Shown here: one piece after another, positions 2,290 to 45,718 of the stretch
Layout: each line of letters opens with the position of its first letter
Numbering within the stretch: position 1 is the first letter of the stretch
NCBI GenBank assembly: GCA_022729995.1
Contig: DZBS01000001.1
Span: forward strand, 46,930 to 110,039
DNA: 63,110 nucleotides
Source of the DNA: Draconibacterium orientale
Lineage (GTDB): Bacteria; Bacteroidota; Bacteroidia; Bacteroidales; JAADGE01
Direction: 5' to 3'
The notes under the pieces: model-generated
Databases searched by the model: none
Seen by the model: only the letters and a program-made list of their open reading frames with translations
What the model was told of the DNA's origin: nothing
Position numbers and translations under genes: made by a program

Positions 2290-3198
2290 ATGATTATGAA
2301 AAACACTCAAATTTTCAAAACTTTATTAATTGCTACTTTATCAACACTATATGCAGTTACATTAATTGCACAACCAAATAAAATGATTTTTGTTGAAGGC
2401 GGAACATTTATGATGGGAAACCCGAGAACAACCGGTGAATATAAAGGAGATACAGATGAAAAACCTGTTCATAAAGTTACTGTCGGCACATTTTATATTT
2501 GCGAAAATGAAGTAACTGTTAAACAATATAAAGAATATTGTACCGCAACAGGCGTAAAAATGCCTTCTGAACCCGATGAAGAATGGTTAGACTCGCATTT
2601 GGATACAAAAAAACTATACGCTTCTTCCGGAAAAAAATGGTGGGGTTGGAACGATTTATTTCCAATTCATAACGTTAACTGGTTTTCTGCTGTAGAGTAT
2701 TGCAATTGGTTAAGTCACAAAGAAAATTTAGAAAAATGTTACACTAAAAATGCCGACGGCGGTTGGGAACTTGACAGAACAAAAAACGGCTATCGTTTAC
2801 CAACAGAAGCAGAATGGGAGTTTGCTGCAAGAGGAGGGAAAAAAAGTATGAATTATATTTTTAGCGGAAGCAATAGTTTAAATGAAGTTGCTTGGTATGA
2901 TGAAACATCATTATTGTCCGGACCTCAAAAAATTAAAACCAAAAAACCTAATGAATTAGGAATATATGATATGAGCGGTAATGTTTGGGAATGGTGTTCG
3001 GATTATTATAAAGCCGATTATTATTCCGGTTCACCTGAAAAAGACCCTTTTTTCTCTGTATCAATGTCATATAGAGTTATAAGAGGCGGTTCGTGGCATT
3101 ATTCGGGTGATTTAGCAACTACCACCGGAAGAGACGGTCCGGAACCTGCTTATACAAATTTTAATTATGGATTTAGATTAGTAAGGTCAAAAATTTAA
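2290..3198 (+). CDS. Secreted FGE-sulfatase (SUMF1/formylglycine-generating enzyme-like) domain protein
   Basis: Signal peptide followed by FVEGGTFMMG, PVHKVTV, NVNWFSAVEYCNWLS, YRLPTEAEWEFAARGG, YDMSGNVWEWCSDYY and RGGSW motifs. Confidence 0.8.
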   Translation: MIMKNTQIFKTLLIATLSTLYAVTLIAQPNKMIFVEGGTFMMGNPRTTGEYKGDTDEKPVHKVTVGTFYICENEVTVKQYKEYCTATGVKMPSEPDEEWLDSHLDTKKLYASSGKKWWGWNDLFPIHNVNWFSAVEYCNWLSHKENLEKCYTKNADGGWELDRTKNGYRLPTEAEWEFAARGGKKSMNYIFSGSNSLNEVAWYDETSLLSGPQKIKTKKPNELGIYDMSGNVWEWCSDYYKADYYSGSPEKDPFFSVSMSYRVIRGGSWHYSGDLATTTGRDGPEPAYTNFNYGFRLVRSKI

Positions 3199-3213
3199 AA
3201 AAATAATGTGCCG

Positions 3214-3326
3214 ATAAAAACATCTGTGTATATTTTTCGACACATTATGAATTAAATATTTAGGATGTTTCTATACCGAGAAATCGGGAAAAGTTCTGAC
3301 TATTGAAAATTAAAAAATATAAACAC
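3214..3326 (+). repeat. Degenerate copy A of the micro-ORF/hairpin element
   Basis: Collinear with 3327-3404 but ATG is replaced by ATA and there is a +1 frame break. A 21-nt insertion contains the hairpin CCGA-GAAA-UCGG. The copy ends with the same 31-nt tail (attgaaaattaaaaaatataaacacatgaaa, 3302-3332) that recurs at 3393-3423. Confidence 0.6.
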
Positions 3327-3404
3327 ATGAAACATCCATGTAAGTTTCACGACACACAAACGAATGATTATTCAGGATGTTCCTATTTGACCATTGAAAA
3401 TTAA
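3327..3404 (+). CDS. Candidate 25-aa micro-ORF MKHPCKFHDTQTNDYSGCSYLTIEN (alternative reading: conserved RNA hairpin)
   Basis: Intact ATG..TAA that ends 13 nt before the ATG of the next gene. A homologous intact copy lies at 15454-15534, and differences in the conserved blocks are synonymous. This ORF is below the size cutoff of the ORF track. Confidence 0.3.
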   Translation: MKHPCKFHDTQTNDYSGCSYLTIEN

Positions 3405-3417
3405 AAAATATAAACAC

Positions 3418-4206
3418 ATGAAAATAATGTCAAAAATTACCGGTTTTATACTTCTATTTACAATATTTTTTAGTAAAGTGACGGCTCAAACAGAGCCTCA
3501 AATGGTGTTTGTAAAAGGAGGAACTTTTATGATGGGAAGTGAAAAAGGCGACAGCGATGAAACTCCTGTTCATAAAGTAACTCTTAGCAATTATTATATT
3601 AGTATTTATGAAATTACAGTTGCCCAGTATAATGAATATTGCAAAGCCACCGGAAAAGGACTTCCCGCATTTCCTTCCGAAGAATGGTATCAAGAGCATG
3701 ACAAAGCCAAAAAATGGGAGTGGAAAGACAATAACCCGATAACATACCTAACTTGGAAAGATGCATCAGACTATTGCGTTTGGCTTTCTAAATCAACAGG
3801 TAAAAATTATTCGCTTCCCACAGAATCACAATGGGAATTTTCAGCCAGAGGCGGAACACTGTCGAAAAATTTTAAATTTAGCGGAAGCGACAATATTAAT
3901 GAAGTTTCATGGTATGACGAAACAACTTACGAAAGAGGTCCAATGCCTGTGGGACGTTTAAAACCCAACGAGTTAGGAATTTATGACATGAGCGGAAATG
4001 CTTGGGAATGGTGTTCGGATTATTATGCAAAATATAAAGCAGGTGTTTTCAAAGACCCAATTGGTGCACCAAAAGGTTTATACAAAGTTGTTAGAGGCGG
4101 TTCGTGGTATTATGTTGATAAAATGTGCTCTGTTACTTCCAGAGACGGACCATACTCAAATTACACAAATTATAATTATGGTTTTAGGGTTGTAATTAAT
4201 CCGTAA
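3418..4206 (+). CDS. Secreted FGE-sulfatase (SUMF1-like) domain protein, tandem paralogue of 2290..3198
   Basis: Same motif set as the upstream paralogue (FVKGGTFMMG, PVHKVTL, YSLPTESQWEFSARGG, YDMSGNAWEWCSDYY, RGGSW). The start is moved from the track's TTG 3394 to ATG 3418 (MKIMSKITGF...), because 3394-3417 belongs to the repeated element tail. Confidence 0.8.
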   Translation: MKIMSKITGFILLFTIFFSKVTAQTEPQMVFVKGGTFMMGSEKGDSDETPVHKVTLSNYYISIYEITVAQYNEYCKATGKGLPAFPSEEWYQEHDKAKKWEWKDNNPITYLTWKDASDYCVWLSKSTGKNYSLPTESQWEFSARGGTLSKNFKFSGSDNINEVSWYDETTYERGPMPVGRLKPNELGIYDMSGNAWEWCSDYYAKYKAGVFKDPIGAPKGLYKVVRGGSWYYVDKMCSVTSRDGPYSNYTNYNYGFRVVINP

Positions 4207-8980: not shown

Positions 8981-10039
8981 TTAATTTTTTAATCTGTTTT
9001 TTGCTAAAATTATTGCTTCATTTAATTTTTGTGATAAAAGTTCTATGTTCGGAAGTTTTGTATAATATTCGGCAACTTTAATATGTTCATTTTTGTCGAG
9101 CATTAAATAGTTTATTTGTTCTTTTGATTTTTCGCTGCAAAGAATTAAGCCGATTGGCAAATTTTCTCCTTCTCGCATTTCATTATGTTCGAGCCATCTT
9201 AGGTAAAGTTCCATTTGTCCCTTGTATTCAGCTTTAAATTTACCAATTTTTAATTCTATAGCAATTAAAGATTTCAATCCTCTGTGATAAAAAAGCAAAT
9301 CAATATAAAAATCTTCATTGTCAATTATAATTCTTTTTTGTCTTGCAAGAAAGGCAAAATCTGTTCCTATTTCGGTTATAAAATTTTGTAAATTTTGTAA
9401 AATTGAACTTTCAAGGTCTTTTTCGCTGTAAGTGTCTTGCAAACCTAAGAAATCTAAGAAATACGGATCTCTGAAAGTTAAATCAGGTGATATTTTATTT
9501 TCTGCTTCAAGTAATTTTAAATCATTAATAATTGTATTTTCGGGAGTTTTGCTAATTGCCGTTCTCTCATAAAGCATGCTCGAAATTCTATCTTGCAGTG
9601 TTCTTACGCTCCATCTTTCATAATTGCACAATTGAATGTAGAATTCTCTTTTTAATTCATCAGATATTGATAAAATTGAATAAATATGCGACCAGCTCAA
9701 TTGTGCAGACACTGTCTGCACAATTTCAAAATCCGGAAATAGTTCATAGAATTTAACAAAGTTATGTAAATTTCGTTTACTAAAACCTCTGCCGTATAAA
9801 CTTGTTAATTGAATTCCTAATTCTGTAATTATATTTTTACCGTAGTCGGCTCTGTTATTTTTAAGAATATCTTGATTTATTTGCTTTCCAATTTGCCAAT
9901 ACAAAATAGAAAGTTCCGAATTTATTGTTTGAGCAACTCTTTTTCGGGTTGAATCAATTAGTGATACAATTGAATTTATCAATTCTGATTTATTAATCTC
10001 AAGATTACTCATTTTATTTACATAGATAGATTTCTCCAA
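8981..10039 (-). CDS. YhcG/DUF1016 family PDDEXK nuclease-like protein
   Basis: 352 aa. The C-terminal core IDLLFYHRGLKSLIAIELKIGKFKAEYKGQMELYLRWL is a PD-(D/E)XK-like motif typical of DUF1016. Confidence 0.75.
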   Translation of the reverse strand: MEKSIYVNKMSNLEINKSELINSIVSLIDSTRKRVAQTINSELSILYWQIGKQINQDILKNNRADYGKNIITELGIQLTSLYGRGFSKRNLHNFVKFYELFPDFEIVQTVSAQLSWSHIYSILSISDELKREFYIQLCNYERWSVRTLQDRISSMLYERTAISKTPENTIINDLKLLEAENKISPDLTFRDPYFLDFLGLQDTYSEKDLESSILQNLQNFITEIGTDFAFLARQKRIIIDNEDFYIDLLFYHRGLKSLIAIELKIGKFKAEYKGQMELYLRWLEHNEMREGENLPIGLILCSEKSKEQINYLMLDKNEHIKVAEYYTKLPNIELLSQKLNEAIILAKNRLKN

Positions 10040-10844: not shown

Positions 10845-10900
10845 TGTGTATATTTTTTAATTATTGAAGATGTGAAATTTGGATTTTTTTCAAAAAAAAG

Positions 10901-11000
10901 TGGGTAAGCTACTTATATCGCACTGCTCAACTTAATTACCCTTGCTTCGGTCAGGACCTGGGGGAGTTCAAAAGGAGCTAGCCGTATAAGACTTACCCGT
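10901..11000 (-). ncRNA. ffs: SRP (4.5S)-like small RNA hairpin
   Basis: GC-rich island of about 100 nt in an AT-rich spacer. The terminal helix is GGGUAAG/CUUACCC. The - strand reads CCCCCAGGUCCUGACCGAAGCAAGGGUAA, which is close to the SRP helix-8 consensus CAGGUCCGGAAGGAAGCAG, with the AGG/AGCA symmetric-loop bases retained. T8 follows the closing stem directly on the - strand, and TATATTTG lies just upstream. Confidence 0.5.
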
Positions 11001-11003
11001 CGC

Positions 11004-11032
11004 AAATATATAACACTTTTTTACAACCAAAA
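11004..11032 (-). promoter_or_regulatory. Bacteroidota-type promoter for the small RNA
   Basis: On the - strand, TTTG (11029-11032) is followed after 17 nt by TATATTTG (11004-11011), which matches the -33 TTTG / -7 TAnnTTTG consensus. The implied TSS is near the GGGUAAG 5' end. Confidence 0.45.
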
Positions 11033-15453: not shown

Positions 15454-15534
15454 ATGAAACACCCATGCATTTATCTTGATGCTAAAAAAATAAATTATTT
15501 TGGATGTTCCTATCTGACCTTTAAAATTAAATAA
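15454..15534 (+). CDS. Candidate 26-aa micro-ORF MKHPCIYLDAKKINYFGCSYLTFKIK (alternative reading: conserved RNA hairpin) inside the nqrA-nqrB spacer
   Basis: Intact ATG..TAA that ends 9 nt before the nqrB ATG. It is collinear, without indels, with 3327-3404. Confidence 0.3.
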   Translation: MKHPCIYLDAKKINYFGCSYLTFKIK

Positions 15535-15543
15535 ATAAAATAG

Positions 15544-16755
15544 ATGAAAGGATTAAGAAAATATATAGAAAAAATTAAACCAAGATTTGAGAAAGGCGGA
15601 AAATACGAAAATTGGCATTCCGTTTTTGAAAGTTTTGAAACATTTTTGTTTGTTTCGGGTGAAACTGCTCCCAAGAAAGGTGCACATATCAGAGATGCAA
15701 TAGATTCAAAAAGACTGATGAGTGTTGTGGTAATTGCATTAATTCCCGCAATGCTATTTGGAATGTGGAATTCAGGATATCAACATTTTTTATCCTTAGG
15801 ACAAAATGTTGCTTTTTTTCAAGAATTTTGGCACGGATTCATTAAAGTTCTTCCTATTATTCTTGTTTCATACATTGCAGGATTAGGAACAGAATTCGTT
15901 TTTGTTTACATCAAGAAAAAAGAAATTGAAGAAGGATTTTTAGTTTCCGGATTATTGATTCCTTTAATTGTTCCTGTTGATATTCCATTATGGATGGTTG
16001 CTGTTGCAACAATTCTTGCAGTAATTTTTGGAAAAGAAGTTTTTGGCGGAACAGGAATGAATATTGTTAACCCTGCACTTTTAACAAGAGCGATACTATT
16101 TTTCGCTTACCCTTCAAAAATGTCGGGTGATAAAATTTGGATTTCGGGTTTAGAAAAAGGAACAGGAATTGTTGACGGATTTTCCGGTGCAACACCTTTA
16201 GCTCAAGCTGCTTCTACTACACACGAACAATTAACACAACACGGATTTCAATTCTTCGACGGATTTAAAGAAAATGCAATAAATTTCTATGACATGTTTA
16301 TGGGCTGGATTCCGGGTTCGATTGGAGAAACATCAACTTTAATGATACTAATTGGTGCCGCAATTTTGCTGTACACCGGAGTTGCAAGCTGGAAAATTAT
16401 GCTTTCCGGACTTGTCGGTGCAGCTGTTATGGGAATCATGCTAAATACGTTTGCAACACCTACAAATCCATATATGGCTTTACCGTTTTATTATCATTAC
16501 GTAATGGGCGGATTTGCTTTCGGTCTAGTTTTTATGGCTACCGACCCTGTTTCTGCAGCTCAAACAGAACGAGGAAAATGGATTTACGGGTTTTTAATAG
16601 GAGTAATGGCAATTCTTATTAGAGTTTTAAATCCTGCATATCCGGAAGGAATGATGCTTGCAATATTATTGATGAACGTATTTGCTCCGCTGATTGACTA
16701 TTATGTTATAAGAGGAAATGTTAGTAAACGTTTAAAACGTGTTAAAGTAAAATAA
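15544..16755 (+). CDS. nqrB: Na+-NQR subunit B
   Basis: 403-aa polytopic membrane protein. It has an SGATPL flavinylation-type motif (FSGATPLAQ) and similarity to RnfD (57002..58003). Confidence 0.9.
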   Translation: MKGLRKYIEKIKPRFEKGGKYENWHSVFESFETFLFVSGETAPKKGAHIRDAIDSKRLMSVVVIALIPAMLFGMWNSGYQHFLSLGQNVAFFQEFWHGFIKVLPIILVSYIAGLGTEFVFVYIKKKEIEEGFLVSGLLIPLIVPVDIPLWMVAVATILAVIFGKEVFGGTGMNIVNPALLTRAILFFAYPSKMSGDKIWISGLEKGTGIVDGFSGATPLAQAASTTHEQLTQHGFQFFDGFKENAINFYDMFMGWIPGSIGETSTLMILIGAAILLYTGVASWKIMLSGLVGAAVMGIMLNTFATPTNPYMALPFYYHYVMGGFAFGLVFMATDPVSAAQTERGKWIYGFLIGVMAILIRVLNPAYPEGMMLAILLMNVFAPLIDYYVIRGNVSKRLKRVKVK

Positions 16756-44045: not shown

Positions 44046-44143
44046 AAAAATTATTAAAAAAAGTAAAATTTGTTTGAAATTTTTCTTGAAAAAAACAATG
44101 TTAATGCTACCTTTGCAAATCTTTATTTAATTGGTTGTTAAAG

Positions 44144-44233
44144 ATGAAATATCCGTTTATATCTCTCTAAATAAAAAAGAATGATTATAAAGGATATTCC
44201 TATCAGACCTTTGAAGTTTTAAAATACAAACTG
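44144..44233 (+). repeat. Decayed copy D of the micro-ORF/hairpin element upstream of purH
   Basis: It reads ATG AAA TAT CCG TTT ATA TCT CTC TAA ... AAT GAT TAT AAA GGA TAT TCC TAT CAG ACC. It is collinear with the intact copies but has an in-frame TAA at codon 9, and both Cys codons are replaced. The frame then runs without a stop into the purH ATG. Confidence 0.55.
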
Positions 44234-45718
44234 ATGAAAAAGAAAATAAAATCAGCACTAATTTCAGTTTACAAAAAAGAAGGTTTAGATAATATTGTTT
44301 CTGAACTAAAACGCTTAGGAATAGTTATTTATTCAACAGGCGGAACTCTCGAGTATTTGAATCAAAAAGGAATTGAAGCAACCGCAGTTGAAGAACTCAC
44401 AAAATATCCTTCAATTTTGGGAGGAAGAGTTAAAACACTTCATCCTAAAGTATTTGGAGGAATATTGGCAAGAAGAGATAATGAAAACGACAAATTGCAA
44501 CTTGCAGAATATCAAATTCCGGAAATAGATTTGATAATTGTTGATTTATATCCGTTTAAAGAAACTTTAGAAGCGCAAAAAAGCGAACAAGAAATAATAG
44601 AAAAAATAGATATTGGCGGAATTTCACTAATAAGAGCAGGAGCGAAAAATTTTAGTGATGTATTAATAATTTCATCTTCAATTCAATACAAAGAATTATT
44701 TCAAATATTGAATAATAATAACGGAGAAACAACAATTGAAACAAGAAAAAAGTTTGCCGGCGAAGCATTTACAGTTTCATCGGAATACGACAAAGAAATA
44801 AATTCGTTTTTTATCGGGGAAAGCAAAATATTAAAATACGGCGAAAATCCGCATCAAAAAGCGAAATTTATCGGCGATTTTGATAAAATATTTGAGCAAA
44901 TTCACGGAAAAGAAATTTCATATAATAATCTTTTGGATATTGATGCAGCCATCGGAATTATATCAGAATTTAACGAAACAACTTTCGCTGTTTTAAAACA
45001 CAATAATCCTTGCGGATTAGCATCACGAAATACACTTTTGGAAGCTTGGAAAGATGCATTGGCAGGCGACCCTGTTTCTGCATTTGGAGGTGTAATTGTT
45101 ACAAATAAAACCGTTGACGACCAAACGGCAGAAGAAATAAATAAAATATTTTTTGAAGTGATAATTGCTCCCGGATATTCCGAAAAAGCATTAGAATTTC
45201 TTAAACAAAAGAAAAACAGAATTATTTTAATTCAGAAAGAGCAAGTTGAAAATCAAAAGTTAGTAAGAACAGCTTTAAACGGTTATCTCGAACAAGATAA
45301 AGATTTAAAAACAGTTACTGAAGCCGATTTAAATTTTATTACAAATACAAAACCGACAAAAGAACAAATTTACGAATTGATTTTTGCAAATAAAATTGTG
45401 AAACACACAAAATCAAACGCAATTATTCTTACAAAAAACAAACAGCTAATTGCAGGCGGAGTTGGGCAAACATCACGAGTTGATGCACTAAAACAAGCAA
45501 TTGACAAAGCACATAATTTTAGTTTCAATTTAGAAGGAGCAATTATGGCATCAGATGCATTTTTTCCTTTTTCCGATTCGGTTGAAATTGCTCACAAAGC
45601 AGGAATAAATGCAATAATTCAGCCCGGAGGCTCAATTAGAGATAACGACACAATAGACTATTGCAACCAAAATAATTTGGTTATGGTCTTCACAGGAATC
45701 AGACATTTTAAACACTAA
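44234..45718 (+). CDS. purH: Bifunctional AICAR transformylase / IMP cyclohydrolase
   Basis: ALISVYKKEGL, STGGT, GGRVKTLHPKV, YGENPHQ, LKHNNPCG and the C-terminal RHFKH. Confidence 0.92.
   Translation: MKKKIKSALISVYKKEGLDNIVSELKRLGIVIYSTGGTLEYLNQKGIEATAVEELTKYPSILGGRVKTLHPKVFGGILARRDNENDKLQLAEYQIPEIDLIIVDLYPFKETLEAQKSEQEIIEKIDIGGISLIRAGAKNFSDVLIISSSIQYKELFQILNNNNGETTIETRKKFAGEAFTVSSEYDKEINSFFIGESKILKYGENPHQKAKFIGDFDKIFEQIHGKEISYNNLLDIDAAIGIISEFNETTFAVLKHNNPCGLASRNTLLEAWKDALAGDPVSAFGGVIVTNKTVDDQTAEEINKIFFEVIIAPGYSEKALEFLKQKKNRIILIQKEQVENQKLVRTALNGYLEQDKDLKTVTEADLNFITNTKPTKEQIYELIFANKIVKHTKSNAIILTKNKQLIAGGVGQTSRVDALKQAIDKAHNFSFNLEGAIMASDAFFPFSDSVEIAHKAGINAIIQPGGSIRDNDTIDYCNQNNLVMVFTGIRHFKH

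Follow-up and report, generated by a model that had tools for sequence, protein, structure and literature searches.

A candidate mobile element of Bacteroidales that targets ATGAAA and rebuilds the gene starts at which it is found

Introduction

Why does one short sequence stand directly ahead of genes that have unrelated functions? The question is raised by a 63,110-nt stretch of Draconibacterium orientale DNA (contig DZBS01000001.1, positions 46,930 to 110,039 of the forward strand; hereafter the window), in which a repeat recurs just upstream of an FGE-sulfatase gene, nqrB and purH. A preliminary description had read this repeat as a Cys-containing micro-open reading frame (micro-ORF) of 25-26 amino acids, had pointed out that its two conserved blocks could pair with each other, and had preferred a mobile or modular translation-initiation cassette to a riboswitch. 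Here, the copies were compared with one another, with the corresponding loci of relatives and with further copies from other Bacteroidales contigs. The repeat is probably a non-autonomous mobile element, orientation-specific and directed at ATGAAA, that persists at gene starts by rebuilding them; this reading draws on sequence comparison.

Results

Empty sites in relatives

The window belongs to a Bacteroidales genome of 31% GC, as a small SRP RNA and the protein neighbours show. Four collinear copies of the repeat, all on the plus strand, lie at three loci within it, at the coordinates originally proposed: copies B (3327-3404), C (15454-15534) and D (44144-44233), and the degenerate copy A (3214-3326). 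Two features had been overlooked. Specifically, the similarity does not end at the micro-ORF stop: via an A-rich tail, it reaches the ATGAAA with which the downstream gene begins. Moreover, the nqr operon has copy C inside it, between nqrA and nqrB. Copies B, C and D were the only matches to the two-block pattern GAAAYAYCY-N30-45-GGATRTTYCTAT, which had none in 100 shuffles; the 12-mer GGATRTTCCTAT, with at most one mismatch allowed, matched exactly copies A to D.

Relatives have a single ATGAAA or ATGAAT start at nqrB (n=5), purH (n=2) and the second FGE-sulfatase gene (n=1). At the same start position, the window has ATGAAA, about 90 bp and a second ATGAAA. In the five nearest nqrB relatives (NqrB 77-83% identical), nqrB begins 30-58 nt past nqrA, and ...TTCCGATGAAA|GGATTA... 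or its equivalent is found where the window reads ...TTCCGATGAAA[90 bp]GGATTA.... As an example, the junction ...TACAATATTAATTCCGATGAAA|GGATTACTAAAATAC of one relative corresponds to ...TACAATTAATATTCCGATGAAA[CACCC ... 90 bp ... AATAGATGAAA]GGATTAAGAAAATAT in the window. Copy C is present in identical form on four further contigs of the species, which also occurs in the JGI samples 3300042874, 3300042114, 3300042991 and 3300000228.

The purH promoter region is conserved with the relatives, including a -7 box that we take to be one by its fit to the Bacteroidetes promoter consensus TAnnTTTG. In the relative at locus L024, this promoter is followed about 30 nt later by ATGAAAAAAATT / ATGAAAAAAATTAAATCT, without the element; in the window, the same promoter distance leads to ATGAAA[element]AAGAAAATA / ATGAAAAAGAAAATAAAATCA.

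The FGE-sulfatase genes (PF03781) are tandem paralogues (2290-3198 and 3418-4206), and the gene order MacB/FtsX - BaxI - FGE1 - FGE2 - FKBP - NMN transporter - AAA_28 is syntenic in L034 and L035. The spacer of the pair is 13 nt in L035 (start ATGAAT) and 219 nt in the window, where it holds copies A and B. In L034, a third relative with an FGE2 that is 72% identical, the spacer is 235 nt (9766-10000) and contains a long-form copy that has decayed. The old ATG of this copy is changed to ATA as in copy A, both arms of the helix P1 described below are eroded, and about 75 nt are extra, with the A-rich tail and the ATG intact.

Since relatives have a single start at the position of the insert, the ATG of the supposed micro-ORF is the ancestral start codon. 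The alignments show this for nqrB, purH and the second FGE-sulfatase gene, each of which now appears to start at the 3' ATG of the element. The early preference for a cassette was essentially right: relative to its relatives, the window has insertions of about 90 bp exactly at three start codons.

Anatomy of the element

The inserted DNA has the layout AAAYAYCC - variable loop - GGATRTTCC-TATNTG-ACCWTTRAAAAT - A-rich tail - CAN'ATG and is flanked on both sides by ATG(AAA). The features are as follows, where P1 and P2 denote two conserved helices.

3214-3326, plus strand: copy A, older and decayed; old start mutated from ATG to ATA (GATAAAAAC)
3217-3225 and 3263-3271: arms of copy A, AAAACATCT and GGATGTTTC
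3275-3295, plus strand: 21-nt GC-rich hairpin (ACCGAGAAATCGGG...) inside copy A, unique in the window
3327-3423, plus strand: copy B, short form; upstream ATGAAA at 3327-3332, downstream ATGAAA at 3418-3423, where the second FGE-sulfatase gene starts
3329-3337 and 3375-3383: P1 arms of copy B
3384-3389 and 3415-3420: P2 of copy B, guide TATTTG and partner CACATG, with one U.C mismatch
3418-4206, plus strand: FGE-sulfatase family gene downstream of copies A and B, starting on the element 3' ATG
15454-15549, plus strand: copy C, short form, in the nqrB start; ancestral ATGAAA at 15454-15459, new ATGAAA at 15544-15549
15456-15464 and 15502-15510: P1 arms of copy C
15511-15516 and 15541-15546: P2 of copy C, guide TATCTG and partner TAGATG
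15544-16755, plus strand: nqrB downstream of copy C, starting on the element 3' ATG
44108-44115, plus strand: purH promoter -7 box TACCTTTG, kept in relatives, about 30 nt before the upstream ATG
44144-44239, plus strand: copy D, short form, in the purH start; ancestral ATGAAA at 44144-44149, new ATGAAA at 44234-44239
44146-44154 and 44192-44200: P1 arms of copy D, with a compensatory U-A pair
44201-44206 and 44231-44236: P2 of copy D, guide TATCAG and partner CTGATG, with a compensatory A-U pair
44234-45718, plus strand: purH downstream of copy D, starting on the element 3' ATG
Element ends: 5' motif ATGAAAYAYCC; motif of the other end GGATRTTCCTATNTGACC
Locus L014, 310-447, minus strand: element
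Locus L005, 5906-5999: element

The 3' tail of copy A is identical to that of copy B, and an nhmmer match of the 3' block to copy A spans 3259-3336 (E 3.5e-6). The 21-nt CCGA-GAAA-UCGG hairpin reported inside copy A is indeed present. Similar GC-rich hairpins (CCCGAGACTTCGGG and CCGCTGGAAGCGG) occur in the remnant of another old copy, in L008 (1375-1425), and may represent a second, even smaller hairpin insert. Unrelated to the element, an intergenic region of L008 carries a direct repeat of about 42 nt (GAACCCYGARTTGCGGAGCAATCGCCGAAGGCAASGGCTCAA) twice (1034-1075 and 1222-1262).

Extent of the family

Further copies were sought with an exact 24-nt pattern taken from the 3' block alone (GGATRTTCCTATNNGACCNTTRAA). 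It retrieved two loci, both in Bacteroidales metagenome-assembled genomes (JANTGL01 and JAIOZM01), from 185,579 species-representative genomes, and ten loci from a metagenome collection, six of them true copies and four (L009, L011, L013 and L015) rejected on inspection as chance matches. Three matches in viral contigs were all due to chance, without the flanking motif, and a BLAST search of plasmid and phage collections gave nothing relevant. Including the four copies of the window, 13 copies are known. Nine of them come from other Bacteroidales contigs, and at least six different contig sets are represented. The copy-by-copy counts given below for reading frames, targets and pairings rest on 11 copies.

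The 5' block ATGAAAYAYCC lies outside the search pattern, yet it is found in every copy retrieved. By the distance from the old to the new ATG, the copies fall into a short class (87-91 nt) and a long class (127-130 nt) with a longer loop; the internal motif GAATGAYTATT(GC) is common to both. A long ORF starts exactly on the element 3' ATG in 8/11 copies, while the copies of L006 and L012 are intergenic and the L010 contig ends too early to judge. In three of about ten loci, the element lies between tandem paralogues, namely the FGE-sulfatases (3198-3418), small lipoproteins (L014) and RND-type pumps (L005). This setting could be a coincidence or could be tied to tandem duplication.

With nhmmer profiles and a covariance model (R1), neither the window nor the relatives gave any additional or divergent copy. 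The nqr and purH surroundings in relatives, about 126 kb in all, showed no copy by nhmmer, compared to four in the 63 kb of the window; likewise, R1 found none over most of those nqr and purH loci. As judged by these searches, the family is lineage-restricted, as mobile repeats are.

Reading frames of the insert

The translations originally given for copies B (MKHPCKFHDTQTNDYSGCSYLTIEN) and C (MKHPCIYLDAKKINYFGCSYLTFKIK) are correct, as are the in-frame TAA at codon 9 of copy D and the distances of 13 nt (B) and 9 nt (C) from the stop to the next ATG. The headline of a Cys-containing micro-ORF is not supported: of the 11 intact copies, only B and C encode MKHPC...GCSYLT, and no other of the 13 known copies does. 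Their upstream ORFs have 25 and 26 codons, and those of the other copies 4, 4, 5, 5, 5, 8, 15, 20 and 36, with peptides such as MKHP, MKYP, MKHPV, MKHPL and MKYPFISL, each ended by a stop. Counted from the ATG, the frame of the GGATGTTCC block is 0, 1 or 2 depending on the copy. In three copies, the upstream ATG is gone (ATA in A and L034, ACG in L014), the insert length (87-91 or 127-130 nt) is no fixed multiple of 3, and Cys codons are in-frame in only 2/11 readings. As the nucleotides are conserved while the frames shift, a conserved micro-protein or leader peptide is ruled out.

A Cys-containing leader peptide or micro-protein of this sequence, regulating or accompanying the downstream gene, is therefore almost certainly not what the repeat encodes. 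Copies B and C do fit such a peptide, with intact frames of 25-26 codons, synonymous differences within the conserved blocks and stops 9-13 nt ahead of the next ATG. Nine of the 11 copies do not encode it, however; frame, length and ATG vary, and the interrupted gene originally started at that upstream ATG. As an explanation of the entire family, the leader peptide is already refuted. The apparent peptide is the old gene start codon reading into the insert, a short dead-end frame.

Target sequence and fate of the insertions

The sequence after the element is ATGAAA in 10/11 copies (one decayed to ATAAAA); among the window genes, 16/55 (29%) start with ATGAAA. Exceptions at the target are ATGACC in L005, in which the old ATG shared bases with the preceding gene's stop codon (ATGA), and ATGAAT in L034. 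The copies available point to a shared target core that is ATGA, with ATGAAA strongly preferred. All copies lie 3' of an ATG, in one orientation. Of the 124 ATGAAA sites in the window, 96 are coding and 16 begin genes; the remaining 12 are intergenic, and elements account for three of these. Insertion at any ATGAAA, combined with the loss of inserts that disrupt genes, is sufficient to explain the gene-start positions, and sensing of start codons is unnecessary.

The flanking direct repeat is always ATG(A) and has 4-9 nt (ATGA, ATGAAA, GATGAAA, ACATGAAA and ATGAAACAT). Its extension to the -1 base was rejected, the -1 base matching in only 4/9 non-tandem copies; because of this mismatch, N' is assigned to the element and not to the duplication. 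Tandem arrangements were found for copies A and B of the window and, as a remnant plus an intact copy, in L008. They fit re-insertion into the fresh ATGAAA made by each copy.

Both the variable length of the direct repeat, which resembles microhomology more than a fixed staggered cut, and the tandem copies, together with the lack of a detected transposase, speak for spread without a dedicated transposase, by microhomology template switching or gene conversion between ATGAAA starts. Recurrent copying to unrelated loci in several genomes on 6 nt of homology is improbable, however, and the arms and the guide and partner sequences covary despite strongly diverged loops, which indicates selection for a form that is functional or competent for transposition. 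As a related possibility, an old leader could have been deleted in the relatives between ATGAAA repeats; 5/5 nqrB outgroups are empty, and independent precise deletions in all of them would be unparsimonious. Taken together, we give these transposase-free routes little credence.

Several copies are decayed. Copy A has lost its ATG and has arm mismatches and the 21-nt foreign hairpin; the L014 copy has ACG for ATG and an arm mismatch; in L012, the new ATG is changed to ATA, with no gene after it. Such decayed copies indicate that selection does not keep single insertions intact. Furthermore, the L034 copy, with its retained tail and ATG, favours a selfish element whose 3' end has been domesticated over a conserved riboregulator.

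Conserved pairings

The pairing of the two conserved blocks noticed earlier was recovered by RNAalifold as helix P1 (GAAACAUCC/GGAUGUUCC), and the paired C-to-U and G-to-A change of copy D is real; at that position, P1 has U-A in two copies and U.G in one. RNAalifold also revealed a second helix, P2, formed by UAUNUG directly 3' of P1 with CAN'AUG, which includes the new start codon. In the 11-copy alignment, 97.4% of the P1 and P2 cells are paired. The covariation score is 0.194, compared to a mean of 0.086 for shuffles (0/500 reach it) and at most 0.083 for slid controls. Specifically, the N/N' pair is C-G in four copies, G-C in four, A-U in two and mismatched in one; L007 and L012 share a loop subfamily and have opposite N/N' pairs, and copy D shows an additional U-A to A-U swap in P2. 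As the pairing partners (the 5' arm and CAN'ATG) lie outside the retrieval pattern, the covariation signal is not circular. An alternative P2, in which UAUNUG pairs with the 5' flank of the old ATG, was rejected (77% paired, no better than shuffles).

Most copies are predicted to form P1, four of them with a probability of at least 0.96. P2 as free RNA has a predicted probability of 0-0.28 in 9/10 copies. Whole-copy fold energies were not significantly better than those of shuffles (z -1.9 to +0.6). No conserved hairpin was found in the 25-nt tail; P1, formed by the left end and the internal block, is the single foldback.

Could the repeat then be primarily a cis-regulatory 5'-leader RNA, in which P1 and P2 sequester both AUGs and set the translation rate, for instance as a thermosensor or a protein-binding site, with dispersal being secondary? 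The pairings are conserved and covary, G.U cells included, the start codon of the downstream gene lies within P2, and P1 should form in most copies. Copy D and the L004 copy each have a TAnnTTTG promoter box 25-35 nt upstream and would accordingly be transcribed as leaders. In contrast, the downstream genes are unrelated (FGE-sulfatase, nqrB, purH, RND pump, lipoproteins, peptidase), and all close relatives have the same nqrB, purH and FGE2 without the element. The low P2 probability and the shuffle-like fold energies also disagree with such a role, and the L034 copy at the FGE site has lost both P1 arms and kept the gene start. Searches of Rfam at gathering and permissive thresholds, with the window and one long-form copy, gave only chance-level matches on the element. 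On balance, a primarily regulatory RNA seems improbable to us.

Rebuilt initiation region

Bacteroidota start translation on A-rich, unstructured leaders that lack a Shine-Dalgarno sequence. The 25 nt ahead of the new ATG have 55% A and 5% G, and the same positions of native window genes have 53% A and 6% G, compared to 33% A over the entire window. Given this native-like tail composition, the element brings a native-like initiation region plus ATG(AAA). In partition-function folds, the old ATG region is more occluded than the new one, with mean unpaired probabilities of 0.09-0.56 (9/10 copies) and 0.41-0.64, respectively. By sequence likeness, the tail sequence GACCTTTG/A is one mismatch away from a TAnnTTTG -7 box.

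The 3' block also stops reading frames. One frame ends at the TGA of TGACC in 10/11 copies, with copy D (CAGACC) stopping 13-16 nt further on; a second ends at the TRA of WTTRAA in 11/11 copies, where the G/A polymorphism leaves a stop either way; and the third stops or joins the new ATG in frame in 9/11 copies. This may be design or mere AT-richness and is weak evidence.

Other observations on the loci

No reverse transcriptase was seen near the FGE-sulfatase pair, nor any sign of targets of a diversity-generating retroelement; such a retroelement was dropped as an explanation for the pair, copies C and D moreover lying in unrelated contexts. P0124, a PurH homologue of 602 amino acids, contains an internal direct duplication of about 95 amino acids (TTLEDRKWFAKEAF...DFTETT twice), which is probably an assembly artefact in the ENA contig. 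On the minus strand of the window, positions 10898-11005 match the small SRP RNA of Bacteroidales over its full length (Rfam RF04183, 93 bits), which confirms the taxonomic placement.

Discussion

Proposed life cycle

How a non-autonomous mobile element with a preference for ATGAAA, which we consider the probable nature of the repeat, would come to stand ahead of unrelated genes can be outlined in a few steps. The element, of about 87-91 or about 127-130 bp, would integrate one way into ATGAAA, or minimally into ATGA. Insertions at ATGAAA within coding sequence would be lost through gene disruption. Gene-start insertions would be tolerated because the element rebuilds the start, and the survivors would accumulate just upstream of unrelated genes.

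Other steps are less certain. The internal strand GGATRTTCC-TATNTG may pair with both ends, in P1 with AAACATCC on the left and in P2 with CAN'ATG on the right. As GGATGTTCC-TATNTG pairs with both element ends, we infer that the fold serves as the substrate for mobilisation: a single strand folded in this way could bring two ATG|AAA junctions side by side and might be acted upon in trans by a putative enzyme. In mRNA, P1 would also mask the region just past the old ATG, and the new ATG would stay largely open.

Several points weigh against this account. Neither the window nor any of the loci yielded a transposase, a recombinase or a full-length parent element, and Pfam scans of 20 of the about 55 window ORFs gave no transposase, integrase or reverse transcriptase; with neither enzyme nor parent element found, mobility is deduced from comparative data only. 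Lacking terminal inverted repeats and having a direct repeat of 4-9 nt, the element fits no characterised transposition chemistry. The relatives with empty sites are only 70-83% identical at the protein level, and a search for presence/absence polymorphism within the species found none, 7/7 same-species contigs carrying copy C or D. The family is known from 13 copies, whose retrieval with an exact 3'-block pattern was biased, and the covariation of P2 could equally reflect a function at the RNA level.

A bolder proposal, to which we would assign a low but real likelihood, is a guide-directed DNA that homes to start codons. Here, GGATGTTCC-TATNTG would align both ends and pick ATG-AAA by pairing (TAT/ATG, TT/AA), and a putative enzyme would insert the element silently between the start codon and codon 2. 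Still bolder is a variant in which ribosomes from the old AUG would be transferred or coupled to the new AUG held adjacent by the fold.

Other known types of element were rejected. An integron attC site was dismissed because the arms GAAACATCC and GGATGTTCC fit neither the RYYYAAC nor the GTTRRRY core; there is also no ORF inside the element, and its copies are scattered among housekeeping genes. An invertible promoter and a self-cleaving ribozyme were discarded on the basis of sequence, size and the absence of Rfam matches.

The conserved micro-ORF is an annotation trap, which bears on the annotation of gene starts and small ORFs in Bacteroidota metagenomes. The empty-site comparisons document a small mobile element that spares its host by regenerating start codons together with a native-like leader without a Shine-Dalgarno sequence, and they bear on the tolerance of insertions by essential operons like nqr and by genes like purH. 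In the element, Bacteroidetes have a natural and portable cassette for translation initiation. If the covarying, guide-like pairing directs cleavage or target choice, it would point to an uncharacterised, sequence-specific transposition system.

Comparison with known systems

In the literature searched, we found neither this Bacteroidales element described nor any repeat shown to split a start codon from codon 2. Classical MITEs, which are miniature transposable elements with inverted repeats (Correia/NEMIS, RUP, ERIC, MITEAba12), are likewise about 100 bp long, non-coding, multi-copy and lineage-restricted, fold back and decay in place, and both can alter the expression of neighbouring genes. 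Unlike MITEs, the element has no terminal inverted repeats. Its left arm is terminal, whereas the right arm GGATGTTCC lies 38-43 nt inside the right end, and the extreme ends (AAACATCC... and ...AAACAN'ATG) are not complementary. Furthermore, where MITEs duplicate an arbitrary target at a fixed length, the element has a direct repeat that is specific in sequence and variable in length, and its orientation to the target is strict.

The miniatures of IS200/IS605 (PATEs) and the REP/REPIN-RAYT systems resemble the element in lacking terminal inverted repeats and conventional target duplication, in inserting in one orientation beside a short specific sequence and in containing hairpin-forming DNA. 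In IS608 and ISDra2 of the IS200/IS605 family, a short internal guide pairs and covaries with the cleavage site in a helix that is thermodynamically negligible. P2 behaves like these contacts between guide and cleavage site, in that it covaries and is too weak as free RNA; by analogy, it may act as a cleavage guide. In contrast to IS200/IS605, which has a subterminal hairpin of its own for each end, the element has one hairpin, formed by the left end and the internal block. Its right flank is also constrained (AAA), and no TnpA or RAYT was found in the window or the loci.

Mycobacterial MIRUs and Rickettsia palindromic elements (RPEs) are likewise small repeats tolerated in operons or genes, since they leave reading frames intact or have overlapping start and stop codons. 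MIRUs are tandem minisatellite units that lie in one orientation between operon genes, with small ORFs overlapping the neighbouring stop or start, a placement like that of copy C between nqrA and nqrB. RPEs are inserted in-frame and translated. The element differs from both in that it is not translated as part of a protein and supplies a new start.

The closest functional analogues documented are Neisseria REP2, found upstream of contact-regulated genes, and the Borrelia plasmid IR. According to the parts of Delihas (2011, PMC3184786) drawn on here, both have internal stem-loops without terminal inverted repeats, lie directly upstream of many unrelated ORFs and carry a ribosome-binding site and the ATG. 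The element shares with them the internal stem-loop, the lack of terminal inverted repeats, the abutment on ORFs and the presence of the ORF's ATG; they belong to other phyla, across which homology is unlikely, and the likeness is one of analogy and not of membership. As presented in those parts, REP2 has a promoter and a Shine-Dalgarno site, whereas the element has an A-rich leader without a Shine-Dalgarno site. For the element, the insertion point can be placed at the start codon, the old ATG remaining ahead of the insert, which those parts do not describe for REP2. We group the element with small non-autonomous dispersed repeats that carry start signals; its insertion logic is unusually precise.

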